From a virus (Duplodnaviria > Heunggongvirae > Uroviricota > Caudoviricetes), in the IMG/VR virus record IMGVR_UViG_2576861193_000004, positions 1 to 64,000 of that record: DNA of 64,000 nucleotides, one strand, 5' to 3'. The translations under genes and the position numbers were made by a program. The notes under the pieces are model-generated. The model was not told the DNA's origin. It saw nothing but the letters and a program-made list of their open reading frames with translations, and ran no database searches. Shown here one piece after another: positions 1,248-30,010 of this stretch (position 1 is its first letter; the number at the start of each line of letters is the position of its first letter).

Positions 1248-3587
1248 TTAATCTTCTAATTCATCTGTCGGTGATGTCTTCTCGCGCCTGTCATCTATTG
1301 CCTGTAACGCAGCAATGATTTCAGCTAATGGCTTCTCCCGGTACATCTCGACGATCTGTGATTTGGTGTATTTCTTCTCGCCAATTTCCACACGCCCGCT
1401 GGCGCTCTTGGGCAGGTATCCTTCCTCCAGCATGTATTCGACCAGAGACTCGACGACGTCCAGCCCGCGAGTCGGGTCGAAGTAGAATTTCCATGAGCAT
1501 TTGCCAAACGGAGGCGCGACTTTGTTTTTAATGCACTCGGCGCCAACGTCCTGTCCGATCTTCTCTTTGCCATCCTTCATGACGGATGCACCCAGACGGA
1601 TGCGCACCGACGCGTAGAACTTCGGAGAGTCGCCACCCGGAGACGTAGTCGGATCGCCAAACATCACACCAATTTTGGTACGCACCTGGTTCAAGAAGAT
1701 GATGCACGCGTTGTACTTACGCGCCCAAAGCGCCAGAGTAGGGAAGTTCGCACTTGTCGCGCGCGCCAGCGCCGTGTTGTCGTTCATGTTCAGCTGATCT
1801 TTGTCCTTCGCAGTGCCTTCTGCCATCTTGTCGAACTTCTCAGCCTTCGAGTTCGGAACCATCGACGCCAGAGAGTCGGCTACGATGCAGATAGGGGCTG
1901 TTTCCGGAATAAGCTCTTCGTCGCGCACCAGCTTGAGGATTGTGCCGATCAGCTCTACGGAGTCTTCGAAGGTATCCGGCTGTTTGTAGACCCACTGACC
2001 GTCGTCTTCGTCGGCGTTCAGTCCGTTCGCTACCGCCAGACCAACGTCGAAACTGTTTTCGTGGTCAAGGAATACGGCCAGACCATCCTGTTTTTGTGCT
2101 GACACCATCGCAGCCGTCGCGAGGAATGTGTTGTGGCTGATAATCCCGTTAGACCAGAAAGAGTGTGTTTCCGGCATCGCTACGTCGAACGTTGGTGCTT
2201 CACCTTCCTCAATAGCCACGACTTCGTCGTAGAACAAGTTAGAGTCAATTACCGCTGCCAGTTGTGCAAACAGATGCTCGTTAAAACGATTCTTTCTGCC
2301 AATGAAGGAGACATAGATTTCTCGCAGTTTGTCTATTCCGACACGATCGCCGCGGCCAATAACGTGATCTACCAGAACGTAGTCTTTACGAGAGGTCTTG
2401 GTGAGTGACTCGTAGAGTGATTTCACTAAGCCGCTGATGTGCGGAACGTAGCCTAAATAAGTGCGGTCAAAACTAATGTCCCGTTTGGTTGCCACTGCTA
2501 AACGAGCCGGAGACTCGAACCCAATCGTTGACAGGAAAAGGTCGTAGTTAGAGCCACTGAATGACAGCCGGTAATATATGTTTTTATAACCTGCGACGTG
2601 TTTTTCAGAGATAGTTGACGTAATCCCCAGATTCAGGAGCATGAGGCGAATTTGCTGTAGCAGCAGCCCACTCGCGCTCACAACCTCAATGCAGCGACCA
2701 TCATTGACGTGGCATTCCAGCTCAAAGTAGCCGCGAAGGAATGCAATTTGAGCCTCGCTATTGGCGCGACGCACACTCAACGGAACCTGCTTGCCAGCAG
2801 CTTTCTCATACTCCAGACCATATTCTTTAAAAAGCAGCGAACGCACCTCTTTGCTAAACAGCACATGGTCTTCCGAGCCGTTATGTTTTCTCGTAACTGG
2901 CATCTTGTCTGATACCAGCGAAATGAGGCGGTAGTACTCATCCTTGATGAATGGATCTGTGTTAGAAACATGCACAGAATTTTCAGAGGCCACGTATCCG
3001 TCAGCAATTAAATAGCCCATCAGTTTTGCGATATTGGCATCCAAGTGCTGATCGCCGAATTGATGTGTGCCAACCATTGAAGGAATCGTGTCGCCTACAC
3101 TGATTTTTTCAGCATGTCGCCAGACGACATTACCTAAGTCGTCAACCACACGGATTGGGTGACGGAACGTAGCCTCGATATAACCGCCTGATGCCAGCTT
3201 AATACGCTTGAATTTGCGACGGTTGTTCCATGTCAGGTGTGAGGTCTTCTCTATCACGCCATTTTCATTGATGAGTCCAACGTTATGCTCTACATCGCGA
3301 GTAGTGCATGTCGCTTTGTACCCTTCAATCTCAAACAACTCTTTCACTGTTACCATTCCACGCTCCGTCAGCAGCATGGTGTCTGCGGTAACACATTTCC
3401 CCGCGCTTGGTGGCCCGAATACTTCTACGATACGACCACATGGGAAACCGCCATCGTAACGACCGGAAATAGCTTTGTTTAACGGAGGAAAGCCTGTGTC
3501 AATCCAATGAGTTACTTTCTGAATTTCGTCGTTGCTACCGATTTTCTTTTTCAGAGCAAGTGCCAGTGCGGATTTTCCTTTTGCCAT
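1248..3587 (-). CDS. RecA/UvsX-like recombinase interrupted by an intein
   Basis: N-extein ...GRIVEVFGPPSAGK then C-extein TFLATAAMVSAQKQDGLAVFLDHENSFD... reconstitutes a RecA P-loop and core (compare E. coli RecA [20 protein letters not shown]...). Spliced length about 357 aa. Confidence 0.9.
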   Translation of the reverse strand: MAKGKSALALALKKKIGSNDEIQKVTHWIDTGFPPLNKAISGRYDGGFPCGRIVEVFGPPSAGKCVTADTMLLTERGMVTVKELFEIEGYKATCTTRDVEHNVGLINENGVIEKTSHLTWNNRRKFKRIKLASGGYIEATFRHPIRVVDDLGNVVWRHAEKISVGDTIPSMVGTHQFGDQHLDANIAKLMGYLIADGYVASENSVHVSNTDPFIKDEYYRLISLVSDKMPVTRKHNGSEDHVLFSKEVRSLLFKEYGLEYEKAAGKQVPLSVRRANSEAQIAFLRGYFELECHVNDGRCIEVVSASGLLLQQIRLMLLNLGITSTISEKHVAGYKNIYYRLSFSGSNYDLFLSTIGFESPARLAVATKRDISFDRTYLGYVPHISGLVKSLYESLTKTSRKDYVLVDHVIGRGDRVGIDKLREIYVSFIGRKNRFNEHLFAQLAAVIDSNLFYDEVVAIEEGEAPTFDVAMPETHSFWSNGIISHNTFLATAAMVSAQKQDGLAVFLDHENSFDVGLAVANGLNADEDDGQWVYKQPDTFEDSVELIGTILKLVRDEELIPETAPICIVADSLASMVPNSKAEKFDKMAEGTAKDKDQLNMNDNTALARATSANFPTLALWARKYNACIIFLNQVRTKIGVMFGDPTTSPGGDSPKFYASVRIRLGASVMKDGKEKIGQDVGAECIKNKVAPPFGKCSWKFYFDPTRGLDVVESLVEYMLEEGYLPKSASGRVEIGEKKYTKSQIVEMYREKPLAEIIAALQAIDDRREKTSPTDELED
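2130..3395 (-). mobile_element. intein (about 422 aa) with LAGLIDADG homing-endonuclease domain inserted in the recombinase P-loop
   Basis: Begins with Cys right after GPPSAGK, ends with HN followed by Thr (+1); internal LMGYLIADGYV motif; boundaries computed from residue positions 65 and 486. Confidence 0.8.
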
Positions 3588-6691: not shown

Positions 6692-6916
6692 ATGAAGCAA
6701 CATCCGAATAAGCATATTCAAGCAGCCATTGACTATGCATTAAGTAAAGGCTGGATCTGGGTAGCTGCTGGTGGTGCTGCACATTGTTTTTGCAGACTGC
6801 GATGCGGTAATCCAGAAGGTGAACACAAAACTCACCAAATGAGCGTATGGTCGACTCCGGGTAATCCCGAAAACCATGCCAAACAGATCAAACGAATGGT
6901 TGATCGTTGTAAATGA
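6692..6916 (+). CDS. small moron protein, weakly HicA-like (YcfA family?)
   Basis: 74 aa with KGW...GGAAH...P...IKRMV pattern loosely resembling HicA toxins; has its own promoter and terminator. Family assignment is tentative. Confidence 0.3.
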   Translation: MKQHPNKHIQAAIDYALSKGWIWVAAGGAAHCFCRLRCGNPEGEHKTHQMSVWSTPGNPENHAKQIKRMVDRCK

Positions 6917-6920
6917 TTTC

Positions 6921-6945
6921 AAGGCGGCATTAGCCGCCTTTTGCA
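6921..6945 (+). terminator. rho-independent terminator
   Basis: Hairpin aaggcggc-atta-gccgcctt followed by TTTG, 5 nt after the stop of the 74-aa gene. Confidence 0.55.
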
Positions 6946-6976
6946 GAAACTGTCCAACTATCTTCAAAGGAAAACT

Positions 6977-7540
6977 ATGGCGCTTTATAACTTCACTCTG
7001 ACGCTCTCAGGCGTATCGTATGAGACGGAAGGACTGGAAGACGCGCTGTACCAAAACGGCTGTGACGATGCGCTAATTTGCGCATATGGAAACTCCGTCT
7101 ATGTAGAATTTGACCGCGAAGCACAATCACTTGATGCAGCTATCGCATCTGCGGTCGACAATATTGAATCAGCCGGTATCGGTGCAATTGTTGAATCCGT
7201 CGACTCGGCTCTTGTGGGCTTAAGCGATATCGCGGAACTGACAGACCTGTCTCGCCAGGCAGTGGCGTTGCTCAAAGACGGTAAGCGCGGAAGCGGCGAC
7301 TTCCCTTGCCCTGTACAACGCATAAAAGGCCAGTCTCCTCTCTGGGATTGGGCTGATGTGGCTGAATGGCTCATGAATAACGGACGACTTAAAGAGGGCG
7401 ATCAAATTGTCCAAAATGCCCGAACTTTGAGTAAATGGAATCTGGCGCTTCGAAACAGCGTCTCGAAAGATTTCAACGAAATAGAGCAAATTGCGGAGAA
7501 ACTGATTAAACGCCGCAAAGATATTGCGAAATGCGCATAA
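6977..7540 (+). CDS. putative DNA-binding protein with central helix-turn-helix
   Basis: ATG at 6977 with AAGGA Shine-Dalgarno (track start 6941 is TTG); segment GLSDIAELTDLSRQAVALLKDGKRG looks like an HTH; N-terminal domain of unknown fold. Confidence 0.4.
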   Translation: MALYNFTLTLSGVSYETEGLEDALYQNGCDDALICAYGNSVYVEFDREAQSLDAAIASAVDNIESAGIGAIVESVDSALVGLSDIAELTDLSRQAVALLKDGKRGSGDFPCPVQRIKGQSPLWDWADVAEWLMNNGRLKEGDQIVQNARTLSKWNLALRNSVSKDFNEIEQIAEKLIKRRKDIAKCA

Positions 7541-11300: not shown

Positions 11301-11895
11301 TGGCTACTTTCATCGCTCGGACGTTAATCTGGTCGTAGAATGGGGTAGGGTGCGGATAAACCACGCTATAGAAGTTGTCTTTCCCGCCCGCTGTAATCAG
11401 TGAGCTTATGATTTTTGCAAAATCGTTGCGTTGGAACACGCTACCGATGTCGGAAGTGAGCAGGATGATGTTGCCTTTGGCATATGTAGAAACCAACTGT
11501 TCGAGCGAGAGACGCGGTACAAAGTAGAACTGTTCTCGTGTGTTGGCCACCGTCATTAGTTCGCAGATGTCGCGATATCCTTGCTCATTTTTAATTAGAG
11601 CGGTAAACGAGTAGTTACGTCCCCGCTCTAATGATTCCATACATCTCATAGATTCTTTAGCAAGTTTAGCCCGGTGCTCGTATGTGGGATCATCAACGAT
11701 ATTTAGTTTCACACCACAAATAACCGCCATGTCGTCACCAGCGGCACGTTGTAGTGGAATAACACTCGCAATATTCATGCTATCTGCTGAAATTACAGCG
11801 GTGTAGCCAGCTTCTCTGGCAATCTTCACCGCGTTTTCTGCTTTTAGAGCCGACTCCCCAAGTGAGAAGTCAGTTCGAACCATCAGTGCTTTCAT
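8389..11895 (-). CDS. dnaE: DNA polymerase III alpha subunit (DnaE-type replicative polymerase)
   Basis: 1168 aa; N-terminal PHP-like region, polymerase core motifs (e.g. GYAFNKSHSVAYSLISYQSMWLKTHYPAEFFAA) and a C-terminal OB-fold region aligning by eye with E. coli DnaE. Confidence 0.9.
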   Translation of the reverse strand: MKALMVRTDFSLGESALKAENAVKIAREAGYTAVISADSMNIASVIPLQRAAGDDMAVICGVKLNIVDDPTYEHRAKLAKESMRCMESLERGRNYSFTALIKNEQGYRDICELMTVANTREQFYFVPRLSLEQLVSTYAKGNIILLTSDIGSVFQRNDFAKIISSLITAGGKDNFYSVVYPHPTPFYDQINVRAMKVASALKIEPVAFYPAYYESIDDADIKDIAHMVTNNIKIDQPHRLRIPHQRDNAVNGRRHLLEALKAFSVRMDVPVTAAMASTTQDSIIEACTWRWHELPPALPKMADDEPATLMKLAVAGLRKRLTTKEFGYTPPASENRVYVERLKYEMDTLTRLGFCGYFLMVRDLMNHSRETGIPVGPGRGSSAGSLVAWCIGITNVDPIRHGLLFERFINPERLDLPDADLDFSQARRHEVIEYLNERYGEDYVAGIPNFTYLGAASALRDTARIYGVESADMAVSKELKNVEDDSLPLEELREQLASLDKYATKYPDAFNAACKLQSLMRGFGRHAAGMIVAGVPLTERTPVERRGDARCIAFDKRYCEAMGLIKLDVLGLATLDLLDSAKRYIKENTGEDINLDAISLEDRKVLDGFAAGYTQGVFQLESGPMRKLLKDLGGGIEPMSFKTVVATTALFRPGPIQSGMLDDYVSVAKGFMAPHSIHPRLEEVTRETNGVLLYQEQIMQSSRVLAGFSMAEADALRSAIGKKNMDKMKAIGSDFVERAQAGWVTLSLKNGGTVEVHKHAKLDCSDGKRRSYSEAISDGIDYVEIVSEQEGLSKEKAQEIWDAFEKFGGYAFNKSHSVAYSLISYQSMWLKTHYPAEFFAAALTILGEDKHQGLVKDALTYGIRVLPPDVNVSSNRIEIRTLEDGSQALYAPFSAVKGCSENGCQAIMRAREKVGGKFESVAQFDEAVEKRACNSRVRESLHKVGAFASIEPGSLPATDPERLRDQAELMGNLIIDAVKASRPFEMNPKRSAEINVLMTRMAAEMGLGEELIRPTIGIKPKIMIILDNANGNDARTGYFMENGYDDFKAKLLTVGDLRMGDLYVTGVCKKVKDKEKDYTKDEIGQFTDFMREEINLVRPTYILTCGSRSTALFNNKSKPSDLIGRKEYFPELDATVFYGFNPNILYFRPEEGERLEAILADIAETINK

Positions 11896-12075: not shown

Positions 12076-13311
12076 TCAACCAAATATTTTTTGAACAACT
12101 TCACGAGCCGCTTGTGCAGAAGCTGAAGGGAGTTTGTTAATGAAAGAACGCTCAATACCTGTCACAAAGTCGCCTCGCATCATTCCAATCTTGGCCGACA
12201 ACAAAAGTTCACGAGGGCCAATTGGCTGACTGATAAGGTGTTCTTCGTATCCATCGCGAACGATACCGGCAAACTTAACCATCTTTTCTGCGTATTCATC
12301 CACGATACCGGCATTTATCAACATGTTGATCTCTGCCTCTTTGCTCATGTATTTCACATTCGAAACGATGCCAAAACGCGAAAAGTTCGCGGCGTTCTGG
12401 ATGTTTGTACCCTGGTACAAGCCGGTTTCATCACCAGATCCGTTCGTGTTGCCAGTGCCAATGAAAGCAAACCGTTCATGCGGAGTAATGCGACGCCATT
12501 CTGGAGTCGCCTCTTTGATGACCAACGCTTCACCTTCCAGCACTGGCTGATACACGCCAAGAATCTGTGGAAACGCAAAGTCGTATTCATCCGCGAGGTA
12601 AACCCAGCCATGCTTCATTGCGAGCGCAAGCAAGCCAGGCTCGAAATACGTAGAGCCATCACGCGCCAGAATTTGCCCCGTAACATGTGCCTCTTCCATT
12701 GATGCTGTATGTTGGGCACGGATCAACGGACGATTGAGCAAAGCACATAGTTGTGTAGGCAATGACGATTTGCCTGTTCCTGCATGACCCCACAAATAGC
12801 CAGGTATGCCAAGTTCAAGCATCATGAAAATATCTTTGATCAGTTCGAAGTCGCCATATACGTAGCCTTTCTTCACTTCGGGAACGAACTCTGGATACGG
12901 CGTATTGACGTTGACGCTAACCATGAGCGGCGTCCCACGTTTTGTTCCGAGTTCTTCCACCGTTACGTTTAGCAGTTCGTGAGCTGCGACCAGATCTGTC
13001 TTGTACTCAACTGTGCCTGTGTAGCCAGGGCTACTGGTCAAGCCAGAAGATTTGGCCATTTCGCTTTTTTGCTCGGCACGTTTAGCTTGAATTGCATCAA
13101 GTGCCTTTTTCGATAGCGTTGGTTCATCTGGAAACTGCGTTGTGTACATTTTCAGTACGGTGTCAGGATCGGCATCTTTTACTGACTCAGGAATGCCCTC
13201 GCAATTACCATTGGCTACATGGGACTTAAAATAGTGAAATGATTTTCCGCACCACTTGCAAACAAGGTAATCAGAAGGATTTTTTTCATTTTGCAGTGCA
13301 GTAGTAGTCAT
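12076..13311 (-). CDS. CobS-like MoxR-family AAA+ ATPase with N-terminal zinc-ribbon
   Basis: Walker A GHAGTGKS, Walker B VYLADEYD, sensor region FAFIGTGNTNGSGD; N-terminal CKWCGK...C. Confidence 0.8.
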   Translation of the reverse strand: MTTTALQNEKNPSDYLVCKWCGKSFHYFKSHVANGNCEGIPESVKDADPDTVLKMYTTQFPDEPTLSKKALDAIQAKRAEQKSEMAKSSGLTSSPGYTGTVEYKTDLVAAHELLNVTVEELGTKRGTPLMVSVNVNTPYPEFVPEVKKGYVYGDFELIKDIFMMLELGIPGYLWGHAGTGKSSLPTQLCALLNRPLIRAQHTASMEEAHVTGQILARDGSTYFEPGLLALAMKHGWVYLADEYDFAFPQILGVYQPVLEGEALVIKEATPEWRRITPHERFAFIGTGNTNGSGDETGLYQGTNIQNAANFSRFGIVSNVKYMSKEAEINMLINAGIVDEYAEKMVKFAGIVRDGYEEHLISQPIGPRELLLSAKIGMMRGDFVTGIERSFINKLPSASAQAAREVVQKIFG

Positions 13312-13406
13312 GCGTTTTTCCTTTGTTTTCTAATGAGCGTTCAACTTCTTATATAAATATATCATTATCTATCGTAAGTGGTTACTTATCGTTAAGGCTG
13401 TTTTGT

Positions 13407-15515
13407 TCACTTTAAAATGATACGAGATAGTTCAGTAACTACAGATGAACCAAGACTATCAACGCTCGTTACCAGGGCATGATTTGAGTAAAATCTCTCC
13501 GGTGCGTCAGTCATGATGCCAATTGCCATCAAATCAATGTCAGTCTGCGTTTCAATTTGCTTCGCAACCGAACGCAAATGAGCGTCAAAACCTCTCCCAA
13601 CAGCCCACGGCTCGCCATCGCTCAGAACAAGCATGATCTTCCTGTCCTCCATGCGACCGGAAAATAACGATGCAAGGCTGGCTATGCTTTCACCATCCAC
13701 GTTATTAAGAAGTGGGAATGTGTAGCCTACGCACCCCATACGTGAGCGAACTTCGCGAGAATTTACCTTTTCATTCCAATTTTTGATGATAGGTAGCATT
13801 AAAGATTCAAAGCGAGAGAACTCATACTTGACAGCCTTAAGTTCTCCTGCCGCCATATGACTACCAAATGTAGTGAAGCCGGTGATAATGTTGGGAACAT
13901 TTATTCGATCAAGGGCATCGGCGATGGTATATGCACTTGCAAGAGCCAATTGTATCGTTATACCCCTCATTGAACCTGATAAATCAATCACTTGTTGAAC
14001 ACAGGCGTTAACGGCTTTAGATTCTTCTTTTTTACGAAACACGCGATCATCATTCATTGCTAATCTGTAGATACTAGAACCATGAATGCGCCCCCGACGC
14101 TGGCCCGGTATAAACTGAACTCTGTTTCTGCTTGCTATTGCTCGCTCCAGGTCTTTTGCCAGCGTCGACGAAACACCTGACGAAAGATGCTTTTCAATAT
14201 ATTTGTCGAAGAGCTGGTTGCCTTCAGGAACGATGCGATAGCGGCTGATTGGACATCCTCCTAAATCAATATCGGAGAATGTTTTAATAAGCCGTTTGAT
14301 ATGGGCTTCTGCCTGATCAATCGAGCCGATGAAGTCGTATGAGCGATTGTATGGCCTGTATTCGCTTTTCGAGCTTTCTGTTAACTCGCTTTTAATCGTT
14401 TCGGATAGAGCATCTTCTGTCATGCCTCCGACTTCATCTTCTATGCTATCCAGCTCCTCTAAAGCCTCTTCCAGACTCATTTTTGACGGAGTTGGAATAT
14501 CTGAAGAGCCGTCTTCTGTCGTTTTTCTTTTTTCGTGGTCAGCGGTTAATGATTCTGACGCCGCGTTATCAGAAGCATCAGAATCTGATACCTCTTTATC
14601 ATTTTCTGTATCATCGAATATTGTTTCTGATGATTCAGAATTATCTGAATCATCGCTGTCGTTATTATCATGTTTGTGCTTACTGTGTGATTCTGATTTG
14701 ATAGATTTGTGATTATCTAACGCTGAGGGTGTCTCATGATCTTCGTTGTCTTCATTGTTTTCTCCAGAGGCATCCGTCTGGTCAGCGTCTGAAGGATCGG
14801 AAGTTTTTCCCGGAGCTGACTCCTTACCTTTGCTTTCACTTTCAGTGTCTTTGAGGATCTTAGCTATGGTCGCAGCCACCTTTACACAATCCTCGGTGCA
14901 AGACATGTTACGCACGGCCACATCGATACCATGTTCTTTTAATAATGAAATTGGTTTCTCAATGACAGGCCAATATTCATCCATGAAATCTACGAACGGT
15001 GCTTGGCCATCCCAGGCTCTTACAACCGGACAGAGAAAGAAGTTTAGAAAAAGCGCGCGCTGATCTTTGCCACAATAAGCAATAGCCTCTGAAGCCTTTG
15101 GTTTAAAGACTTTTTCGATTATAAGGCGCTGAGTTGCCATCAGATTACGTCTTGTTCCGTTAAAGATCTGACCCATTTTTCGCTCGATGAACACGTCTTC
15201 TAAGGCATTCCATAGCGACCAGGAAGGAACGCGTCCTTTTTCTCTCATTTTGTTGGACACACGAATATCGGTAAACAAAATGTGAGCAACCTCATGATCG
15301 AGAAATCCGCGCACAGCATTCATCAATGCCGGTGTTGCGTTATCCGGGATTGATGGGATGTTTACGAGAATTGGCTCTCCATCATCGTTATAGCGTACAT
15401 AAGCGTCGTCCCCTCGTTCTGCAACAGGGATGTTTTTACCTGAAAGGAGAGCGACTACTCGTTTTACACTGTCACGGAAGTCCTGAACCTCTTTGATGGA
15501 ACGTTTTTTAGACAT
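13407..15515 (-). CDS. CobT-like von Willebrand factor A (VWA) domain protein with long acidic disordered linker
   Basis: C-terminal VWA-like region (VIDLSGSMRG ... LVLSDGEPW); central 150-aa stretch extremely rich in D/E/S; gene immediately downstream of the AAA+ partner. Confidence 0.75.
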   Translation of the reverse strand: MSKKRSIKEVQDFRDSVKRVVALLSGKNIPVAERGDDAYVRYNDDGEPILVNIPSIPDNATPALMNAVRGFLDHEVAHILFTDIRVSNKMREKGRVPSWSLWNALEDVFIERKMGQIFNGTRRNLMATQRLIIEKVFKPKASEAIAYCGKDQRALFLNFFLCPVVRAWDGQAPFVDFMDEYWPVIEKPISLLKEHGIDVAVRNMSCTEDCVKVAATIAKILKDTESESKGKESAPGKTSDPSDADQTDASGENNEDNEDHETPSALDNHKSIKSESHSKHKHDNNDSDDSDNSESSETIFDDTENDKEVSDSDASDNAASESLTADHEKRKTTEDGSSDIPTPSKMSLEEALEELDSIEDEVGGMTEDALSETIKSELTESSKSEYRPYNRSYDFIGSIDQAEAHIKRLIKTFSDIDLGGCPISRYRIVPEGNQLFDKYIEKHLSSGVSSTLAKDLERAIASRNRVQFIPGQRRGRIHGSSIYRLAMNDDRVFRKKEESKAVNACVQQVIDLSGSMRGITIQLALASAYTIADALDRINVPNIITGFTTFGSHMAAGELKAVKYEFSRFESLMLPIIKNWNEKVNSREVRSRMGCVGYTFPLLNNVDGESIASLASLFSGRMEDRKIMLVLSDGEPWAVGRGFDAHLRSVAKQIETQTDIDLMAIGIMTDAPERFYSNHALVTSVDSLGSSVVTELSRIILK

Positions 15516-15826: not shown

Positions 15827-16077
15827 TCAATCAATCCATTCTAACTTATACTATGGTAAGGAATACTACTAAAATTTGTATCAATACTGAATACATTCAT
15901 ATCATATGCAAGTTGATTTTCTTACCTGTTTTGGGCTAATTTTTCTCCGTGCAATGGCCTTTAACCGGTCTTTTAAGTGCCTATCGAAAAAAATGATAAT
16001 AGCTTTACAACCCTAACCTTTGATGTAATATCGGTAAGCACTTACCAGAGAGAATTGAACGCGCAAAGGTTGTAACC

Positions 16078-16464
16078 ATGTCTGATAACAAGATTGAATT
16101 TATAGAAAGTCGCTACGCTGCTTTTATCGCAGGGTTGATTGAATCCTCACCTATGAGCCAGGCCCAGATAGCCAAAACAATTGGGTATAAAAACGCCAAC
16201 AACCTTTCTTTAATTAAAAGCGGCAAAATTCCTTTGCCTATCGATAAGGTTCGTCCGCTGGCGCTGGCACTGGGTATTGAGCCAAGTCGTCTTATGATGA
16301 TGGTGCTGGAAGAACGCCAACCCGAACTCGCAGCATTTTTATACAAAGAAGGCACTGCTCCTCTTAACGAGGACGAAAAACAGGTTCTTGCTGCATATAA
16401 CGAGCGATTCGGTAAAGAGAAAGGCGCATCACAAAAGGTTGTTGAGGCCATAAAGTCTCTATGA
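16078..16464 (+). CDS. XRE-family helix-turn-helix transcriptional regulator
   Basis: HTH segment MSQAQIAKTIGYKNANNLSLIKSGK; 128 aa; convergent with the recombinase gene. Confidence 0.7.
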   Translation: MSDNKIEFIESRYAAFIAGLIESSPMSQAQIAKTIGYKNANNLSLIKSGKIPLPIDKVRPLALALGIEPSRLMMMVLEERQPELAAFLYKEGTAPLNEDEKQVLAAYNERFGKEKGASQKVVEAIKSL

Positions 16465-17562
16465 AAAATTTACACGAATAAGCTCTGTTGATAGACGATC
16501 TCCCTTAAATTTGTGGTCAATTTCGTCTAAATCCGGTTGCTCTACGATTGATGCGATGTACGTCGAGAAACTTTCTAAGGCGTCTCGCATCTCGTCCATA
16601 TAATCGTGCCGGTCGTAGACCCGATCTATCCCCTCAAGACTGTGGTTCATGATTTTACGTGATACCTCCTGGCTTATGCCTAATGCTGGGAAGTAACTAC
16701 GCGCAGTACGGCGCAAATCTCGGGGTGTAAATGGCTCAAGCTCCATCAGTTCTGGTCGTTCCAGAATACGACGTAATGCCTGGGCTATTGCCACTTTAGA
16801 CATAGGAAGGTCTTTCCCGATTTTTTTATTCGAAGGCACGAGCCACTGGCTGTCTTTACCATATTCGAACAACTCTTCAATACAAGTGCGCATTAATGAG
16901 CTTAAAGGCAGAGAATGCTCACGGGCAGATTTGTTCCTCTTGCCTTGATTCCAAACCCCACGCTTAAGATTGAACTCACTTTTTTTAGCCCGCAGTACTT
17001 CGTCAGGTCGTCTTGCGGATACAAGACATAGCCTGGCAGCCCATTTTGTACCAGCACACACATTGAAGTAGTCCCATATATTCCAGAACACCCATACCTC
17101 TGCGTCGGTCAGCTTCCGCTCGCGAGGTGTGGGCTTTGCGCCACCGGCAACTTTGTTAAGTGACATATCGTTTAACGGTGACACGTCTATCATCCCCTGG
17201 AAGGCGCACCAGCTAAGGAACTGCTTCATCAGAGAGAAAACGCGGCGGCCCATAACAATTTTGCCATCCAGTATTAGTGGGTTGACCAGTTGGTTCACCA
17301 TGAACCTATTAATGTCACTTACTTTTACATCGGCAATGTGCGGCAAAACATGTATCAAAATACAATGAACAGCGATCTCTGGCCGACGTCTGGTTATCAG
17401 CAGAGATAAGCGAGTGAATAACATGAATGCGTCCGAGAATCTCATGTCATTGCTAACCTGCGAGATCATAACGGCCTGCATTTGAGATGCTCTTTCGAGA
17501 TACTCTATCGCCTCTTTTGAGGTGTTCTCCGCAGCGCGTGCTCTGTCAAAGCTATTTTTCAT
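16459..17562 (-). CDS. int: tyrosine site-specific recombinase (phage integrase family)
   Basis: Catalytic-domain residues in order: ARRPDEV (Arg), PRDLRRTA, MNHS, RVYDRHDY (Tyr). Could be an integrase or a multimer-resolution recombinase. Confidence 0.8.
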   Translation of the reverse strand: MKNSFDRARAAENTSKEAIEYLERASQMQAVMISQVSNDMRFSDAFMLFTRLSLLITRRRPEIAVHCILIHVLPHIADVKVSDINRFMVNQLVNPLILDGKIVMGRRVFSLMKQFLSWCAFQGMIDVSPLNDMSLNKVAGGAKPTPRERKLTDAEVWVFWNIWDYFNVCAGTKWAARLCLVSARRPDEVLRAKKSEFNLKRGVWNQGKRNKSAREHSLPLSSLMRTCIEELFEYGKDSQWLVPSNKKIGKDLPMSKVAIAQALRRILERPELMELEPFTPRDLRRTARSYFPALGISQEVSRKIMNHSLEGIDRVYDRHDYMDEMRDALESFSTYIASIVEQPDLDEIDHKFKGDRLSTELIRVNFS

Positions 17563-17660
17563 ATGACAATCACCGAGTTACGCCGATGCACTGTATAAGT
17601 AAACAGTATATTAGGCATAGATTCTTATAGGATCAAGAGTAAAAGTAACTCATTTTCAGC

Positions 17661-17693
17661 AATGATTCCATACATAGTAGGTATGGAATCATT
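17661..17693. repeat. perfect 13-bp inverted repeat AATGATTCCATAC / GTATGGAATCATT with 7-bp spacer
   Basis: Read directly; the right arm recurs as single copies at 19434..19446 and 20446..20458. Confidence 0.8.
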
Positions 17694-17772
17694 TTGACGT
17701 TGTTTTTTGAATTTTAAGGGAAATGGGAGTGAGTTTGGTGGGAATAAAAACGGCTCCTGTGAGCCGTTAAAA

Positions 17773-18018
17773 TCAGAGGGTGCTGACGTATGCAGCCAGT
17801 TCTGTGTATCCGCCAATCGGCTGGCCATCGATCAGCACCTGGGGGATAGTCTCTACCGGTTTACCAACAATTTCACTTAGTTTTTCCTTGTCGATACCGG
17901 CAGTGGTGATGTCGATGTACTCATAATCACCGTAGCCATGTCCCTTTAGTTGCTTCGCCAGCTCGACCGCACGTTTGCAGTATGAGCAGTTATCTCGTCC
18001 GTAGATAGTGATCGTCAT
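17773..18018 (-). CDS. glutaredoxin-like protein (NrdH/GrxA type)
   Basis: 81 aa with CSYC active-site motif near the N-terminus and glutaredoxin-length fold. Confidence 0.8.
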   Translation of the reverse strand: MTITIYGRDNCSYCKRAVELAKQLKGHGYGDYEYIDITTAGIDKEKLSEIVGKPVETIPQVLIDGQPIGGYTELAAYVSTL

Positions 18019-18365
18019 TGCTTTGCCTCATGCCACTTTTGCTTCAGGAGATAGCCTTCCAGGGGCCAGATTTGATCGATAGCATCTTTTCGAGCGTACT
18101 CGCGACCAACATCAAAGTTGAAGATTTCTGGTCTTACGCACGCAGATTTTCCCGTTACGGTATATCCATTTTTGAGAACCATAACGCAGAACGTTAAGAG
18201 TTTTAACGACTCATGACCTTTGTCGATATCTGTTTTTGAATTGTAAACAGAGATGAAGTTATCCCCGTGGCTGGCATCATATGCAGTGAAATAATGTTCA
18301 CTTTGAATGAGTTGTTCAATGTGTTCAGGGGTGACTTTTAGTGGTGTGTTATCTTTGCTGGTCAT
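18015..18365 (-). CDS. hypothetical protein
   Basis: 116-aa ORF whose stop overlaps the glutaredoxin start by 4 nt (coupled); no motif. Confidence 0.45.
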   Translation of the reverse strand: MTSKDNTPLKVTPEHIEQLIQSEHYFTAYDASHGDNFISVYNSKTDIDKGHESLKLLTFCVMVLKNGYTVTGKSACVRPEIFNFDVGREYARKDAIDQIWPLEGYLLKQKWHEAKQ

Positions 18366-18406
18366 TATTTCTTCCTACAAAGTTCGTAGACTTGACTCTT
18401 TCAGTT

Positions 18407-18438
18407 GCAAAAAAGGGGCCGAAGCCCCTTTGAATTTT
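18407..18438. terminator. bidirectional hairpin terminator candidate
   Basis: aggggcc-ga-agcccct stem flanked by an A-run upstream and T-rich sequence downstream. Confidence 0.5.
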
Positions 18439-18586
18439 GCGCTGAAAAAAAGTGTTGCTAGGATGTTAGCAAGCTATGGTTAAGAACGTCTGCCGTAATT
18501 GTCTATCACAGCGTTGAGCGGTCTGGTTTATGTTAGCGGAGTCTTAATCTGGGTGATTAAAAGGCCAAACCGCTCAACGCTGTGTC

Positions 18587-18673
18587 TGGCGGAGAGTAAT
18601 GGAATCGAACCATCATCGCTTGCGCAATGGGACGGTTTTCAAGACCGCTTGAGCACCATGCTCCCTACTCTCC
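18587..18673 (-). tRNA. tRNA-Ser: tRNA-Ser (anticodon UGA), type II with long variable arm
   Basis: Manual fold of the reverse complement: 7-bp acceptor stem GGAGAGT/ACTCTCC, discriminator G, encoded CCA, T-loop TTCGATT, anticodon loop CTTGAAA. 87 nt. Confidence 0.8.
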
Positions 18674-18772
18674 AGCTATTGTGATGGTCGGTGCTGAACT
18701 CCGACACAGGGTTGTAGCAAGCCCCGCAAAGCGCGCACTACTGTAGTTGCGGCACATCAGCCTGTGCATTCA

Positions 18773-18862
18773 TCACAACGGTAAGATCACTACCTTTCGA
18801 CCAGTCATTGTGCACATGAACGACGATTAACCGTAATGATCTTATCGTTGTGTTGTGAAGCC
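18773..18862. repeat. long stem-loop 1 in tRNA spacer (arms CACAACGGTAAGATCA / TGATCTTATCGTTGTG)
   Basis: About 17-bp inverted arms with one mismatch, separated by about 50 nt; paralogous to stem-loop 2. Confidence 0.6.
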
Positions 18863-18900
18863 AGATGCTTATCTTCTGGTTGCTTCAAAGAGCTGCACTT

Positions 18901-18996
18901 CCTCACAACGGTAAGAGCACTGGTCTGACTCTATCGATTTACGGGCTTGTGGGTCAGTATCGCCGATTCGCCCAATGCTCTTACCTGTTGTGTTGG
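18901..18996. repeat. long stem-loop 2 in tRNA spacer (arms CACAACGGTAAGAGCA / TGCTCTTACCTGTTGTG)
   Basis: About 17-bp inverted arms separated by about 50 nt; right arm abuts the 3' end of tRNA-Thr. Confidence 0.6.
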
Positions 18997-19069
18997 TGCC
19001 GGTTAACGGGATCGAACCGCTGACATCCTGCTTACAAGGCAGGCGCTCTACCAACTGAGCTAAACCGGC
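18994..19069 (-). tRNA. tRNA-Thr: tRNA-Thr (anticodon UGU)
   Basis: Reverse complement GCCGGTTTAGCTCAGTTGGTAGAGCGCCTGCCTTGTAAGCAGG...GGTTCGATCC...AACCGGCACCA: D-stem GCTC/GAGC, anticodon stem CCTGC/GCAGG, loop CTTGTAA. 76 nt. Confidence 0.85.
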
Positions 19070-19073
19070 AATT

Positions 19074-19160
19074 TGGTGGGGAGTGATGGAGTCGAACCAC
19101 CCGAGTCGCAATGACAGTAGATTTACAGTCTACCCCGCTGCCCCTACGGACTAACTCCCC
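19074..19160 (-). tRNA. tRNA-Tyr: tRNA-Tyr (anticodon GUA), type II
   Basis: Acceptor GGGGAGT/ACTCCCC, anticodon arm GTAGA-CTGTAAA-TCTAC, long variable arm, T-loop TTCGACT, CCA encoded. 87 nt. Confidence 0.8.
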
Positions 19161-19165
19161 TAAAT

Positions 19166-19240
19166 TGGCGATGGTGGGTGGATTCGAACCACCGACCAGT
19201 TGGTTAACAGCCAACTGCTCTACCGCTGAGCTACACCATC
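19166..19240 (-). tRNA. tRNA-Asn: tRNA-Asn (anticodon GUU)
   Basis: Acceptor GATGGTG/CACCATC, D-arm GCTC-AGCGGTA-GAGC, anticodon arm GTTGG-CTGTTAA-CCAAC, T-arm GGTGG-TTCGAAT-CCACC, CCA encoded. 75 nt. Confidence 0.85.
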
Positions 19241-19506
19241 AATTCAGCACTGCCAGTATTTATTACTCAACAGTGCCAATCGCGACGGTTTAGTTTCTGC
19301 CAGGAAACGCACCGCTACTTGCACTTTTCGTTAGTGCCAGACGCTTTCGACTTCGCTCAATAGTAGAAGGCAAAATCTTTAAGTAGATGATGTTTCTGAG
19401 GACAGCACCTACTTTGTAATTTATACAATGTGATGTATGGAATCATTTGTTGTGAAAACAGGCACCAATGGCAACAGTGGTTAAACCTACACAACAATCC
19501 TGTCTT

Positions 19507-19628
19507 CACAACGTTGAGGCCACTACTCCGATTGAATGTTTGCCCAACATGTTACATATCAACGCTCGCCGGTATCTCTGTGAATAGAACCTTAGAATTG
19601 ATAAAAATGTAATGGCCTCAACGTTGTG
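19507..19628. repeat. perfect 15-bp inverted repeat CACAACGTTGAGGCC / GGCCTCAACGTTGTG separated by 92 bp
   Basis: Read directly (arms 19507..19521 and 19614..19628); shares the CACAACG core with the tRNA-spacer stem-loops. Confidence 0.7.
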
Positions 19629-19789
19629 TGCTGGCTAACCATACCAGCCGGGCTACGTCGCCGCTTTTTAACCCAGTATAAACGACATAATTGAACAAAA
19701 TGACGTAACAGGATGGGCGGTCAGTGGCTAAGAATCCGGGAGTCATATGGAGTTGAAAATATACCAACCGCCCATTCTGTTACTTCATC

Positions 19790-19813
19790 GGAGGGAACAT
19801 GAATGTTCCCTCC
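19790..19813. repeat. strong palindromic hairpin GGAGGGAACAT-ga-ATGTTCCCTCC
   Basis: 11-bp perfect arms read directly, in a 780-bp stretch without convincing ORFs. Confidence 0.7.
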
Positions 19814-20018
19814 TGCGTTCTGCAATCACACTCGCTCAGTGTGTCCCATTTCGGTAACGAGGCTGGAAACTGACCTCGCTGGTGTTTGGCTTATTAGGCT
19901 ACTGCCAGATAGACTTCTTCGTTTGCACTTGTATTTAAGTTCAAACAGTCGCGTCTCAACGAAAACAAAGTCATCTTATACATAAAAGATAAGTAAGTAA
20001 ATACTTATCACCATGTTT

Positions 20019-20309: not shown

Positions 20310-20458
20310 TTTCTAACCTTTGTTTCATGAACTACCCGATACACACGCTTTCCGATGCACAGTGTTTTGGTTTTAAGTTCCTGCTTAATTAAATCACGAC
20401 AGATGCCGAAGCCGATAAGGAAGCCACCCATAAAAGCTAATGAGATGTATGGAATCAT
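20306..20458 (-). CDS. small hydrophobic protein (50 aa), not in the ORF track
   Basis: MIPYISLAFMGGFLIGFGICRDLIKQ...; its stop overlaps the ATG of the downstream gene; its start lies inside a copy of the GTATGGAATCATT motif. Confidence 0.25.
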   Translation of the reverse strand: MIPYISLAFMGGFLIGFGICRDLIKQELKTKTLCIGKRVYRVVHETKVRK

Positions 20459-20670
20459 TTTAACGCTCCTGATTCTACTAATTGCTGTAGCAATACTTTC
20501 CCTTTATCAGTTAACTGGTAGTTGGCCGAACACCACGTTTCAGAAACGTTTGCAACCAACCCTAACCGCTCTAACTTAGCTCGCGTTTTAGGCTTCCAGT
20601 ACTCAGGGAACTCCGGCCACTTACTTATTTCATGAAGCGTTTCTTTCTCCCGTTTACTTAATACGATCAT
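20455..20670 (-). CDS. hypothetical protein
   Basis: 71-aa ORF whose start overlaps the ligase stop by 4 nt (coupled). Confidence 0.45.
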   Translation of the reverse strand: MIVLSKREKETLHEISKWPEFPEYWKPKTRAKLERLGLVANVSETWCSANYQLTDKGKVLLQQLVESGALK

Positions 20671-27045: not shown

Positions 27046-27813
27046 ATGGACGATTTATCGGTATACGCGAGATCATTGGATAAGGCTAAATACTATGTTT
27101 ACTGTCTCTATGATACAGAAGACAAGATGAAAAGACCGTTTTACATAGGAAAAGGCAAATCGACTCGTTGTCTCGATCACATCAAGTATCCCGATGACTC
27201 TCCCAAATCCATGCGGATCAAAGAACTTTTGGCTAATAAAAAATTAGGCATAGATATACTTCGTCATGGTATGGATGAAACCACAGCCAAACTTGTTGAG
27301 GCGACATGCATCGACCTTATGGGGGTCGGAGAGCTTACGAATAAGGTACGAGGAAGTGGTTCCATGATGGGCAGAATATCACTGGACGCCTACCATCACT
27401 TAGTGCTGCAAGAGGAAACTGAAATTGCTCCTGAGCACGCCGGTCTTGCCTTCCTGCTAAACAGCACCTACAAGTCAGGAATGTCCGCTCTGGCATTATA
27501 TGAAGCTACGCGTGGCGTATGGGCAAAGGTTCCAAGAGACGAGAATCTCAAATATGCCTACGCTACATATGGTGGGCTGATAATGGAAGTTTATCAGATT
27601 GAATGCTGGGTCAAAGCCGGTTCTCAGCAGTACTTTACAAGGGATATAGCTCTTGGCCCCGACACAAAACGTTATGAATTTGTTGGCAGAATAGCCGATG
27701 AGCATATTAGAAAACTGTATGTAGGCAAATTAATCAAGAAGCCACCAAGCTACGGTAGCCCTTTTGTGAAGGTTGGGGTGGTTAGGACTGAACATAGTGT
27801 TAGCGCGGCATAA
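27046..27813 (+). CDS. GIY-YIG domain nuclease
   Basis: N-terminal YYVYCLYD...PFYIGKGKSTR (GIY-YIG core); 255 aa with uncharacterised C-terminal half. Confidence 0.7.
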   Translation: MDDLSVYARSLDKAKYYVYCLYDTEDKMKRPFYIGKGKSTRCLDHIKYPDDSPKSMRIKELLANKKLGIDILRHGMDETTAKLVEATCIDLMGVGELTNKVRGSGSMMGRISLDAYHHLVLQEETEIAPEHAGLAFLLNSTYKSGMSALALYEATRGVWAKVPRDENLKYAYATYGGLIMEVYQIECWVKAGSQQYFTRDIALGPDTKRYEFVGRIADEHIRKLYVGKLIKKPPSYGSPFVKVGVVRTEHSVSAA

Positions 27814-27829
27814 AGCTGACACTGTAGTT

Positions 27830-27867
27830 ATGCATTGGCGCAATGTACGCGCCAATGCATGATTTTT
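27830..27867. terminator. bidirectional terminator between convergent genes
   Basis: Perfect 12-bp inverted repeat ATGCATTGGCGC / GCGCCAATGCAT with 7-nt loop, followed by gattttt. Confidence 0.6.
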
Positions 27868-28225
27868 AACCTTTCTTCATCAACTCTCGTTTGATTTCAT
27901 CGGTACGCATCGTGACATCGGCAGCGGTGATCGCCTCATTCAATTTCACGATGTCCTCGATTTCCTGCGGTGACTTCTCTGCCAGATGGAAAATGGCTGC
28001 TCGAATCACGTCAGAACGAGTGAACTTCTCGAAGCGAGGGATGAACTTCATCATCTCCAGCAGTTCGAAGTATTCGTCCTCCAGTGACATTGTGCGGCTT
28101 TTAATTTTCTCTTTGCCACGAGTCGGGCGTCCCTGTGGTCTGACTGGTTGGCGCAAAGGAGTTGTGTTCTTAGCCGGTGCATCAGGCTCTTTGCGCTTTG
28201 CTAGGTCACCCATTTTCATGGACAT
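27866..28225 (-). CDS. small basic partner of ParA (ParG-like, putative centromere-binding protein)
   Basis: 119 aa, basic N-terminus; gene start abuts the parA stop. Role inferred from position. Confidence 0.4.
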   Translation of the reverse strand: MSMKMGDLAKRKEPDAPAKNTTPLRQPVRPQGRPTRGKEKIKSRTMSLEDEYFELLEMMKFIPRFEKFTRSDVIRAAIFHLAEKSPQEIEDIVKLNEAITAADVTMRTDEIKRELMKKG

Positions 28226-28893
28226 TATTCTTCTTCCTCCAGACTCAACAGATAATCTACAAATTCTTCAAACTCGGCTTCCGCCTTTTTGTCGCGCTCG
28301 CTACCGGTCATTTCAAAGATAGAACGACCAGACTCTTCCGCATCATCATAGACGTTGCGGTTATACAGATTGACTGGCGCAGACTCGATTCCAAACGTCT
28401 CAACAATCTCTTTAGCCGCCAGAATGCGAGACACTTGTGATGGCAAAGCCGGACACTGGTTCATGACCGCGCGGACCTTCACTTTATCGTTTACATTGCG
28501 AACATTGTCGATAATAGGATCGATGTCACGTAAAGATTTCAAATCACGACGCTTAGGACGCAGCGGGATAATGATAACGTCAGCCATCAGCATCGCTTGT
28601 CGCTGAATTTCGGAGTCGAAGCCACCAGCATCTACCACTACAAACTCAGCTCTACCCTGAAGCGATTTTAGGTGCTTAATGATGTCATCCTGAACGTATG
28701 CAAAAGGAATCAGCTCAAGGTCTTCGTTCTGTCGACGGTCTTCACACCAGCTCGTTGTCGTGCGCTGAATATCTATATCGGTAATATAAACCTTCTTCTT
28801 CTTTTTGACTTTCAGGCAAACGGCAATTTGCTGGGCAACGGTGGATTTGCCAGGCCCGCCCTTTGTGCCGCCAACCACAAAGATCTTGGTCAT
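28225..28893 (-). CDS. parA: ParA-family partition ATPase (small type Ib)
   Basis: Deviant Walker A KIFVVGGTKGGPGKST at N-terminus, 222 aa. Confidence 0.85.
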   Translation of the reverse strand: MTKIFVVGGTKGGPGKSTVAQQIAVCLKVKKKKKVYITDIDIQRTTTSWCEDRRQNEDLELIPFAYVQDDIIKHLKSLQGRAEFVVVDAGGFDSEIQRQAMLMADVIIIPLRPKRRDLKSLRDIDPIIDNVRNVNDKVKVRAVMNQCPALPSQVSRILAAKEIVETFGIESAPVNLYNRNVYDDAEESGRSIFEMTGSERDKKAEAEFEEFVDYLLSLEEEE

Positions 28894-29211
28894 TGGAGAG
28901 TTCCCTTTGCGTATATAATTATCGTCTGAAACAACTTGTTTTCTTATATGTGATATAGCCTAAATGCCTACGGCTGCGGTGTAAAGGTTAAATGGTAGGT
29001 TGTGATTAACAATTGGCAATCATAGCTTGTATTTGTCTGTTGAAAAAAGTAACAATGACCTCTATATTACAAGTACGGTGATATGCCGTACACAATTTGA
29101 TAATGCACACGTAATGGGCTATAGCCTTTTAAAGTAATTTTTGAGTCGAAAACTCAGTTTGAACAGAGGAGATTGATGGCCTTCCTACATCACGGCCATC
29201 AGGAGGAATAC

Positions 29212-29481
29212 ATGTCAGCACTAAAAAAGCAGCGCATCGATTTGAGATTAACCGATGACGATAAAAGCATCATCGAGGAAGCTGCCGCAATGTCTAACCA
29301 GAGCATTACTCAGTTTATGGTTAGCAGTGCATCTGAACGTGCCGTGAAAGTTATAGAGCAACACCGTAGACTAGTTCTGAATGAAGAATCCTGGAATCTG
29401 GTTATGGACGCTATAAGCAATCCTCCGGCACCGAACGACAAGCTGAAACGAGCTGCTGATCGTCTGAAAAGCATGGAGTAG
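29212..29481 (+). CDS. DUF1778 (TacA/AtaR-family) antitoxin
   Basis: 90 aa MSALKKQRIDLRLTDDDKSIIEEAAA...NPPAPNDKLKRAA; AGGAGG Shine-Dalgarno 6 nt upstream of ATG 29212 (track start 29173 is TTG). Confidence 0.85.
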   Translation: MSALKKQRIDLRLTDDDKSIIEEAAAMSNQSITQFMVSSASERAVKVIEQHRRLVLNEESWNLVMDAISNPPAPNDKLKRAADRLKSME

Positions 29482-29488
29482 TTTACTC

Positions 29489-30010
29489 GTGAGCAATACA
29501 ACGATAGAGATTTTCTCTGGAGAGAAAGATTATGATCTAAACGGTTTTGATTGCGGCGAAGAGTCACTAAACGCCTTTTTAGCCAACCACTTAAAAAGGC
29601 AGCATGAGGGAAAAATTCTTCGTGCTTATGTGCTTTGCACTCAAGAAGAAAGGCCAAAAGTGTTAGGATATTACACTTTGTCAGGTAGTTGTTTTGAAAA
29701 GGAGTCCTTACCTTCAAGAAGCAAACAAAAGAAGGTTCCTTATCGGAATGTTCCAAGTGTTACTTTGGGTAGGCTGGCTTTGGACAAGTCCCTTCAAGGT
29801 CAAGGATTTGGCTCAATGCTTGTAACACATGCAATGCGCGTTGTGTACAATGCATCTCTTGCTGTAGGCATTCATGGACTTTTCGTTGAGGCGTTAAATG
29901 ACAAAGCCAAGGCGTTTTATAAAAGTTTAGGCTTTATCCAGCTGGTTGGTAACAACGAGCGTTCTTTGTTCTATCCTACAAAATCTATCGAAAAATTGTT
30001 CGAAGAATAA
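29489..30010 (+). CDS. GNAT-family acetyltransferase toxin (TacT/AtaT-like)
   Basis: 173 aa, GNAT motif A LQGQGFGSMLV; starts 8 nt after the antitoxin stop. Family members acetylate aminoacyl-tRNA. Confidence 0.85.
   Translation: MSNTTIEIFSGEKDYDLNGFDCGEESLNAFLANHLKRQHEGKILRAYVLCTQEERPKVLGYYTLSGSCFEKESLPSRSKQKKVPYRNVPSVTLGRLALDKSLQGQGFGSMLVTHAMRVVYNASLAVGIHGLFVEALNDKAKAFYKSLGFIQLVGNNERSLFYPTKSIEKLFEE

Follow-up and report, generated by a model that had tools for sequence, protein, structure and literature searches.

Whether a tyrosine recombinase encoded near a tRNA cluster serves to insert a phage genome into the chromosome of its host or to maintain that genome as a plasmid is the question raised by a stretch of 64,000 nucleotides (nt) of Caudoviricetes DNA (IMG/VR record IMGVR_UViG_2576861193_000004, positions 1 to 64,000; hereafter, the window). 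The initial annotation had described the locus as ambiguous in lifestyle, and the XRE regulator, the tyrosine recombinase, the tRNA cluster, ParA with its partner and the toxin-antitoxin module that it named are all present at the positions it gave. The window is part of an SSU5/pHCM2-type phage-plasmid, a near relative of the Escherichia phage Cyrano (pLF82). Here, we show that its recombinase gene (int) is accompanied by a conserved inverted repeat of two 13-bp arms around a 7-bp spacer (hereafter, the 13-7-13 site). The interpretation that we favor, with a probability of about 0.62, is that the recombinase, which lacks an arm-binding domain, and this single site form a Cre/loxP-like module resolving multimers of a non-integrating phage-plasmid.

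A recombinase of the lambda/P4 lineage without an arm-binding domain

The recombinase (Int, 367 amino acids (aa); 16459-17562, minus strand) matches the Pfam family Phage_integrase (PF00589, E = 2.9e-10) and, weakly, PF22022, while no match to the arm-binding domains PF13356 or PF09003 was returned by Pfam. Homologs down to ~43-44% identity show the same make-up, being ~365 aa long with PF22022 and PF00589 and all without PF13356, whereas the next tier (26-34% identity) consists of P4-type integrases in which PF13356 is present. The NCBIfam P4-type model aligns to the recombinase only from position 137 of 413. At the structural level, the AlphaFold (AF2) model has a predicted local distance difference test score of 84, with an N-terminus (residues 1-70) predicted to be all-helical, and its top Foldseek fold match is lambda Int residues 75-356, spanning the core-binding and catalytic domains (template modelling score ~0.7). 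Cre is a far weaker fold match (Foldseek E ~0.1, 10-11% identity), and phmmer against all PDB chains gave no match at E ≤ 0.01. Int is, in short, a lambda/P4-lineage tyrosine recombinase with core-binding and catalytic domains and without an arm-binding domain.

The catalytic residues of lambda Int are R212-K235-H308-R311-H333-Y342, and the spacing R185-K211-R281-R284-H307-Y316 in the recombinase parallels them. Among 25 homologs down to 43% identity, R185, K211, R281, R284 and Y316 never vary and H307 is retained by at least 90%, with an Arg (R281) in place of the usual first His of the HxxR box throughout the family. Judging from these alignments, the recombinase appears active and under selection, yet it looks built as a "simple" recombinase rather than as an integrase. 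No excisionase adjoins int in the window or in the Cyrano annotation; a 199-aa helix-turn-helix (HTH) protein 9 kb from int (6941-7540) matches the PHROG category "excisionase and transcriptional regulator" and is labeled HicB or an HTH regulator in annotations, its gene being the partner of a HicA-like one. Within the 88 kb of the Cyrano annotation that were read, there is no second site-specific recombinase.

It is hardly credible that int is a defunct remnant from an integrative ancestor, even though phage-plasmids need no integrases (PMC7969092, PMC12977533) and the His-to-Arg change in the HxxR box could be taken to point that way. Homologs of the recombinase occur on 933 plasmids of PLSDB from more than 20 genera, full length and nearly always in single copy, and 900 of these plasmids are non-mobilizable. 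SSU5 is, furthermore, a recognized phage-plasmid supergroup with tyrosine recombinases among its persistent genes (PMC7969092). Decay is also at odds with catalytic positions that are kept down to 43% identity and with a cognate site that co-evolves with the protein.

A conserved 13-7-13 site beside the recombinase gene

The candidate recombination site, AATGATTCCATAC-ATAGTAG-GTATGGAATCATT (17661-17693), lies 98 nt upstream of the int start and consists of perfect 13-bp inverted arms around an asymmetric, AT-rich spacer of 7 bp. The "repeated sites in this region" to which the initial annotation alluded are real, as a 15-mer arm of the site is found five times in the window against 0.16 copies expected by chance. 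Perfect arms at exactly 7-bp spacing were found in 88 of 89 related loci, where the arms form islands of perfect identity amid variation in the spacer, in the ~22 nt on the int side and in the int-distal flank. Klebsiella-type loci (Int 59% identical) have the arms TGTGATTCCATAC and Xenorhabdus-type loci (Int 47% identical) the arms TGTGACTCCAGAC, both with the same geometry and position; in these distant clades both arms co-vary and the 7-bp spacing stays fixed. Exactly one full site is present on each of 252 E. coli plasmids.

The spacer is constant in length (7 bp) and drifts freely in sequence, with 20 AT-rich variants seen. In four pairs (those of loci L002/L005, L094/L095, L163/L164 and L092/L169), one spacer is the exact reverse complement of the other and both flanks are retained (null P < 5e-5), which means that the site has repeatedly changed its polarity with respect to int. 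Most spacers carry CTA or TAG beside one arm only; the spacer of the window lies at 17674-17680.

Two proteins, XRE and Int, are candidates for binding this site. The XRE-type HTH regulator (128 aa; 16078-16464, plus strand; Pfam HTH_19, E = 7.8e-4; PHROG transcriptional regulator, 1.3e-11) is encoded convergently with the 3' end of int, which it overlaps by 6 nt, and the two genes converge in all phage-plasmid clades. Its Cyrano counterpart, CYRAN_45, is annotated as a putative repressor, and transcription of the gene is 10-fold over background in the LF82 lysogen (PMC9928086). As the XRE gene accompanies int in every phage-plasmid clade examined, linkage within the phage-plasmids cannot tell which of the two owns the site. 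Two complete, non-phage megaplasmids, of Pantoea vagans (CP028350, 507 kb) and Rahnella victoriana (CP089920, 723 kb), carry an int homolog alone, among metabolic and fimbrial genes and without XRE or phage genes. Both int loci retain TGACTCCAGAC-N7-GTCTGGAGTCA, 48 or 100 nt upstream of int.

The XRE gene has a palindrome of its own. A promoter scan placed its promoter, TTTACA-16-TAATAT, at 16004-16046 (plus strand), where the palindrome GGTAAGCACTTACC occupies 16033-16046, directly past the -10 box. The palindrome is kept in relatives, is represented by the related motif TTACTTAC in distant clades, and recurs as a motif six times in the window against 1.3 expected; we consider GGTAAGCACTTACC a candidate XRE operator, distinct from the Int site. 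Copies of GGTAAGCACTTACC with one mismatch were also noted at 13374, 31528, 55304 and 62103. The linkage data indicate that the 13-7-13 site belongs to the recombinase, because it stays with int on megaplasmids that have no XRE gene and because XRE has its own palindrome.

For the same reasons, namely the megaplasmid loci without XRE and the separate conserved palindrome at the XRE promoter, the site motif is unlikely to be an XRE operator. A genome-wide operator in the manner of P1 C1 was rejected, as all five copies of the motif fall within 9 kb; the arm motif is absent from the other 43 kb of the window and from 48 kb of Cyrano.

Besides the full site, three half-sites are present as single arms. 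One, ATGTATGGAATCATT, lies inside a dnaE-like open reading frame (ORF; 11630-11644, minus strand); the second is intergenic, ~195 nt upstream of tRNA-Asn (19433-19447, plus strand); and the third falls at the junction of a 71-aa and a 50-aa gene (20445-20459, plus strand). They share the core gatGTATGGAATCAT, located at 11631-42 (minus), 19435-46 (plus) and 20447-58 (plus). All three hold their positions in relatives while their flanks vary, and in every clade that has them the half-sites on either side share the strand of the nearer full-site arm, despite positions that differ between clades. Degenerate second arms were not seen beside them by eye, nor were deletion products joining the full site and half-sites seen among relatives. 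Such polarity-ordered half-sites around a full site might constitute an additional layer of control. As lone copies of the arm, they can also be written gatGTATGGAATCATT, and all three are within 6 kb of the full site.

These half-sites bear on the possibility that the inverted repeat is a transcriptional operator only, bound by Int as an autorepressor or by another regulator, and that recombination is not its selected function. Identical half-sites at conserved nearby positions suggest DNA binding without recombination, and the freedom of the spacer sequence to vary is a property shared by many operators. The site is also located ~30 nt upstream of the -35 box of a putative int promoter (TTGATC-17 nt-TAATAT followed by a short inverted repeat, ACTGTTTACTTATACAGT; approximately 17590-17625, minus strand). 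This promoter, identified by eye, is kept in relatives while the ~22 nt separating it from the site vary, and it scores under the threshold of a consensus promoter scanner. We nevertheless regard a pure operator as unlikely. Catalytic residues, including the Tyr nucleophile, are conserved family-wide, which would be unexpected for a protein that only binds DNA. Arms of 13 bp with a 7-bp spacer represent the canonical core-site geometry of tyrosine recombinases, as in the lambda attP core, loxP and FRT, and the strictness of the 7-bp spacer here agrees with that geometry. Binding by XRE or a genome-wide regulator is further disfavored by the different palindrome at the XRE promoter, by the persistence of the site with int where XRE is absent, and by the confinement of all motif copies to 9 kb.

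The element is maintained as a plasmid

Cyrano (OV696614) is ~98% identical to the int region of the window at the nucleotide level, and Salmonella phage SSU5 shows 79% nucleotide identity over the shared part. The gene order of the window is that of Cyrano throughout. The closest record is a circular E. coli plasmid of 116 kb, collinear with the window at 97-99.8%. According to the annotation of the collinear records, lysis, tail-fibre, tail and tape-measure genes fill the rest of the window, and one replicon unites phage structural and lysis genes with ParA and toxin-antitoxin genes; RepA, seen in Cyrano, sits just outside the span of the window. Given the identity to Cyrano, the collinearity with the 116-kb plasmid and the phage genes, the entire window therefore consists of phage-plasmid DNA and includes no flanking host sequence.

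Cyrano, from the SSU5/pHCM2/pMT1 group of phage-plasmids, shares with the window the order RecA-like, exonuclease, gp32-like, DnaE, AAA/CobT, XRE, int, grx, tRNAs, ligase, primase, helicase, ParA, TacAT, and lysis and tail genes, and the two are alike in their plasmid state, partition genes and toxin-antitoxin genes. Only cargo distinguishes the window from Cyrano: CYRAN_43 is missing beside the site, a tRNA-Tyr and a GIY-YIG nuclease gene are additional, and the tail-fibre segments are not the same.

We searched complete E. coli genomes with a 2.5-kb query covering the int locus, which is present in 252 of 5,426 genomes. Every one of its 262 places is plasmid-borne (262/262), and none is chromosomal (0/262). 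The 56-bp site region likewise has no chromosomal match at E ≤ 10 in complete E. coli genomes. Among species-representative genomes, a single protein query found plasmid-sized contigs only, in a scan that reached close relatives only. These results are in line with published work, in which Cyrano/pLF82 is present at 5.5 copies per cell in E. coli LF82 and releases siphovirus particles upon ciprofloxacin treatment (PMC9928086), and in which, from thousands of complete genomes, SSU5-type elements were described as "exclusively extrachromosomal" (PMC9600943). We conclude that ParA partition and toxin-antitoxin modules maintain the prophage as a circular plasmid of low copy number, and that it does not integrate. 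The lifestyle is thus not ambiguous, contrary to what had been proposed, as the plasmid state of the family is already known both experimentally and from genome surveys (PMC9928086, PMC9600943).

The initial annotation had also suggested that the element might switch between integrated and episomal states, which would require Int to be a true integrase. The protein does come from the lambda/P4 integrase lineage by sequence and fold, and tRNA genes are near. In addition, the authors of tyPPing note a few phage-plasmid-like regions in chromosomes (PMC12977533), and a few members of the recombinase cluster (identical or 86% identical) lie on contigs of 0.2-0.9 Mb. Alternation between chromosomal and episomal prophage states is nonetheless very improbable in our view, given that neither the int locus nor the site region has a chromosomal copy in the E. 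coli survey, that the arm-binding domain is missing and no excisionase is next to int, that the nearby tRNAs are intact phage genes and not the 3' ends of host tRNAs, and that the same site-int module is present on non-phage megaplasmids. The rare chromosomal copies were themselves ascribed by the authors to recombination not directed by an integrase (PMC12977533). For E. coli, integration is already largely refuted.

The tRNA cluster and the variable cargo region

The tRNA cluster (Ser-UGA, Thr-UGU, Tyr-GUA and Asn-GUU; 18587-19240, minus strand; ARAGORN and Rfam) lies ~1 kb from the int start. Related plasmids share this cluster, as do P1, P7 and D6, and host tRNA genes match the phage-borne tRNAs just partially (~79-85%). 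Since the tRNA genes are intact and only partially like those of the host, the proximity of integrase and tRNA is not an attachment-site arrangement, and what had been read as a "classic integrative arrangement" consists of complete, element-borne genes. We looked for the proposed attachment core overlapping a host tRNA 3' end, and found whole tRNAs, the partial host match and no chromosomal match to the site. The cluster was accordingly rejected as an attachment site, its genes being intact, phage-borne and of only distant similarity to those of the host.

Three related hairpin-like inverted repeats flank the tRNA genes (18507-18584, 18771-18855 and 19507-19628), with arms of 20-23 nt that share CACAACGTTGAG and loops of 38-82 nt; they have no match in Rfam. 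Compared with Cyrano, the tRNA region of the window contains, besides the extra tRNA-Tyr, an insert of ~300 bp.

Comparison with relatives shows that the int-distal side of the site is a variable cargo ("moron") region (17694-20000), of which the window carries a minimal version made up of grx, a gp49-like gene and the tRNAs. Elsewhere the same place is occupied by CYRAN_43 (Cyrano), by a YafO cassette (L007, E. coli), by PhoH and Ail/Lom (L008, Citrobacter), or by a Tn3/IS26 multidrug-resistance region (NZ_CP139126). The immediate int-distal flank (17694-17794) is empty in the window and filled in L001 (19695-20591), L007 and L008, and CYRAN_43 is very highly expressed in Cyrano. SSU5-like elements have been reported to possess a single insertion locus for antibiotic resistance genes (ARGs), with PhoH and DNA ligase among the listed neighbor genes (PMC9600943). 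This locus appears to correspond to the cargo region beside the site.

It is conceivable that recombinase and site generate this variability themselves, capturing or swapping cassettes in an integron-like or IMEX-like manner. Homology between close relatives stops at or within ~25 nt of the int-distal arm, the same YafO cassette is found directly beside sites whose spacers and int-proximal flanks differ (L007 versus L004, L058 and L052), and the ARG locus, by its neighbor genes PhoH and DNA ligase, appears to map adjacent (PMC9600943). However, with exactly one full site per replicon, cassettes do not lie between two sites. At its far end, the variable region stops in ordinary conserved genes (the grx 3' end, the tRNA region), as homologous recombination between conserved flanks predicts, and the elements encode their own homologous-recombination genes. 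The site is not where the large cargo that we inspected, which is borne by Tn3, IS26 and IS91, has inserted. Cargo exchange is decidedly unlikely on this evidence. We also considered whether a 218-kb plasmid might be a cointegrate made by the recombinase; the extra DNA inspected by the site is a Tn3/IS26/IS91 resistance region, part of an additional ~100 kb, and is not joined at the site.

Multimer resolution as the proposed role

A Cre/loxP-type organization suggests itself because there is one simple site per replicon, the recombinase has no arm-binding domain, the module resides on low-copy plasmids and phage-plasmids only, and it keeps company with ParA and toxin-antitoxin genes. We infer that the recombinase binds and recombines the 13-7-13 site and that its biological role is multimer resolution. 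The suggestion in the initial annotation of a phage-plasmid using its recombinase for this purpose fits all of the evidence. In such a scheme, when a plasmid dimer has formed, four recombinase monomers would bind the two directly repeated copies of the site, and strand exchange across the 7-bp spacer would convert the dimer back to monomers, which would then be segregated by partition. The cyclization of terminally redundant infecting DNA might represent a second role.

Several considerations weigh against a resolution system. No dimer, resolved pair or hybrid site was observed as a recombination product. The geometry and conservation of the site would equally fit an autoregulatory operator bound by the recombinase, and the two megaplasmid loci are the only ones at which the two candidate binding proteins, Int and XRE, are separated. 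The three conserved half-sites within 6 kb play no part in a simple resolution model. Finally, the predicted active site is atypical, with Arg replacing the catalytic His of the HxxR box.

Partition, toxin-antitoxin and other genes in the window

The partition gene parA, 10.7 kb from int, encodes a small Walker-type ATPase of 222 aa (28225-28893, minus strand), with matches to Pfam MipZ, AAA_31 and CbiA and to PHROG ParA-like (4e-51); the NCBIfam ParA_partition model gives 1.9e-33, below its equivalog cut-off. Directly downstream of parA, a 119-aa partner is encoded (27866-28225, minus strand) with a basic N-terminal tail and a pattern resembling that of ribbon-helix-helix (RHH) proteins. It has no Pfam match and a single weak match to an RHH family (aCcr1, E = 2.3e-4, below cut-off). 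It is plausible, from these features, that the product is a ParG-like RHH centromere-binding protein of the kind known from type Ib plasmid partition. In Cyrano, the corresponding gene is labeled "RelE/ParE putative toxin" (CYRAN_29), for which family searches gave no toxin-family support. This public annotation is probably wrong, because a toxin-family match is lacking and the protein has a ParG-like RHH appearance. No convincing iterated repeats that could serve as a centromere were found in 27700-29300.

The toxin-antitoxin module (29173-30010, plus strand) consists of a TacA antitoxin and a GNAT acetyltransferase toxin and is KacA/KacT-like (Pfam PF08681 TacA1, 8.6e-26; GNAT domains, ~1e-8), in agreement with the PGAP annotation of the homologous plasmid.

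Next to the par operon, on the opposite strand, lies a gene for a LEM-3-like GIY-YIG nuclease (27046-27813, plus strand). It is probably a mobile, homing-type nuclease gene, because Cyrano has a different ORF on the other strand at this position. The space separating the GIY-YIG gene from the parG-like gene, which converge, holds a 12-bp perfect inverted repeat, ATGCATTGGCGC-7 nt-GCGCCAATGCAT (27830-27860), that is probably a bidirectional terminator.

Three further loci were noted. A 779-aa ORF (1248-3587, minus strand) is annotated as RecA in Cyrano, whereas PGAP calls its counterpart in the homologous plasmid a "LAGLIDADG family homing endonuclease"; it may be a RecA/UvsX-like gene split by an intein or homing endonuclease. 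The 74-aa and 199-aa genes at 6692-7540 (plus strand) are HicA/HicB in the Cyrano annotation, without a match to the Pfam HicA or HicB models. Beside the XRE-int module in all phage-plasmid clades is a pair of genes encoding a CobT-like protein that contains a long acidic insert of low complexity, rich in Ser, Asp and Glu (13407-15515, minus strand), and an AAA_5 (MoxR-like) ATPase (12076-13311, minus strand).

Comparison with known recombinase systems and significance

The closest parallel in organization is Cre/loxP of P1. As in the window, Cre is a tyrosine recombinase without an arm-binding domain, acting at an adjacent simple site with 13-bp inverted repeats and a short asymmetric spacer, and P1 is a low-copy plasmid prophage with ParA-type partition and a toxin-antitoxin module. 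By analogy, the role of Cre/loxP, dimer resolution and perhaps cyclization, would be expected here too. The two systems differ in that there is no detectable sequence kinship between the recombinases, the lineage in the window being of the lambda/P4 type, and in that the spacer is 7 bp and not 8. The site in the window is ~100 nt from its gene, whereas loxP is roughly 400 nt from cre.

The nearest sequence outgroup is formed by the P4/CP4-57-type integrases (PF13356 + PF22022 + PF00589; 26-34% identity), which share with the recombinase the central and catalytic domains and the "DLRRT ... Y-x-R-x-x-Y" motifs. In contrast to them, the recombinase has no N-terminal arm-binding domain, is ~40-90 aa shorter, has Arg for His in HxxR, and is without a tRNA-derived attachment site or a chromosomal copy in the E. 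coli genomes examined. Plasmid tyrosine resolvases with an adjacent site are also known, namely ResD/rfsF of F and Rsd/crs of the Salmonella virulence plasmids. These resemble the window in having a single recombinase gene, a target in its own upstream region and a large low-copy plasmid as their home; the analogy is one of organization only.

Searches of the literature for the site sequence, or for multimer resolution in SSU5/pHCM2, found nothing relevant, a 10-mer query giving primer matches only, and the site appears to be undescribed in the searchable literature. We lean, if only slightly, towards the view that recombinase and 13-7-13 site together constitute a Cre/loxP-like system not previously described there, derived from P4/lambda-type integrases by loss of the arm domain and common to the whole SSU5 supergroup as well as to enterobacterial megaplasmids (Pantoea LPP-1-type, Rahnella). 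If this is true, the clade-specific arm variants, such as GATTCCATAC versus GACTCCAGAC, could serve as ready-made orthogonal pairs of recombinase and site, with a possible use in genome engineering.

The lifestyle of these elements was already known; what our results add is a conserved lox-like site for the recombinase of the family. The pairing of recombinase and site would account for the tyrosine recombinase kept by all of these elements, which are said to "lack integrases". It also offers a testable stability function for a clinically common type of plasmid, one frequent in E. coli and Klebsiella as well as in Salmonella Typhi (pHCM2) and Yersinia pestis (pMT1).

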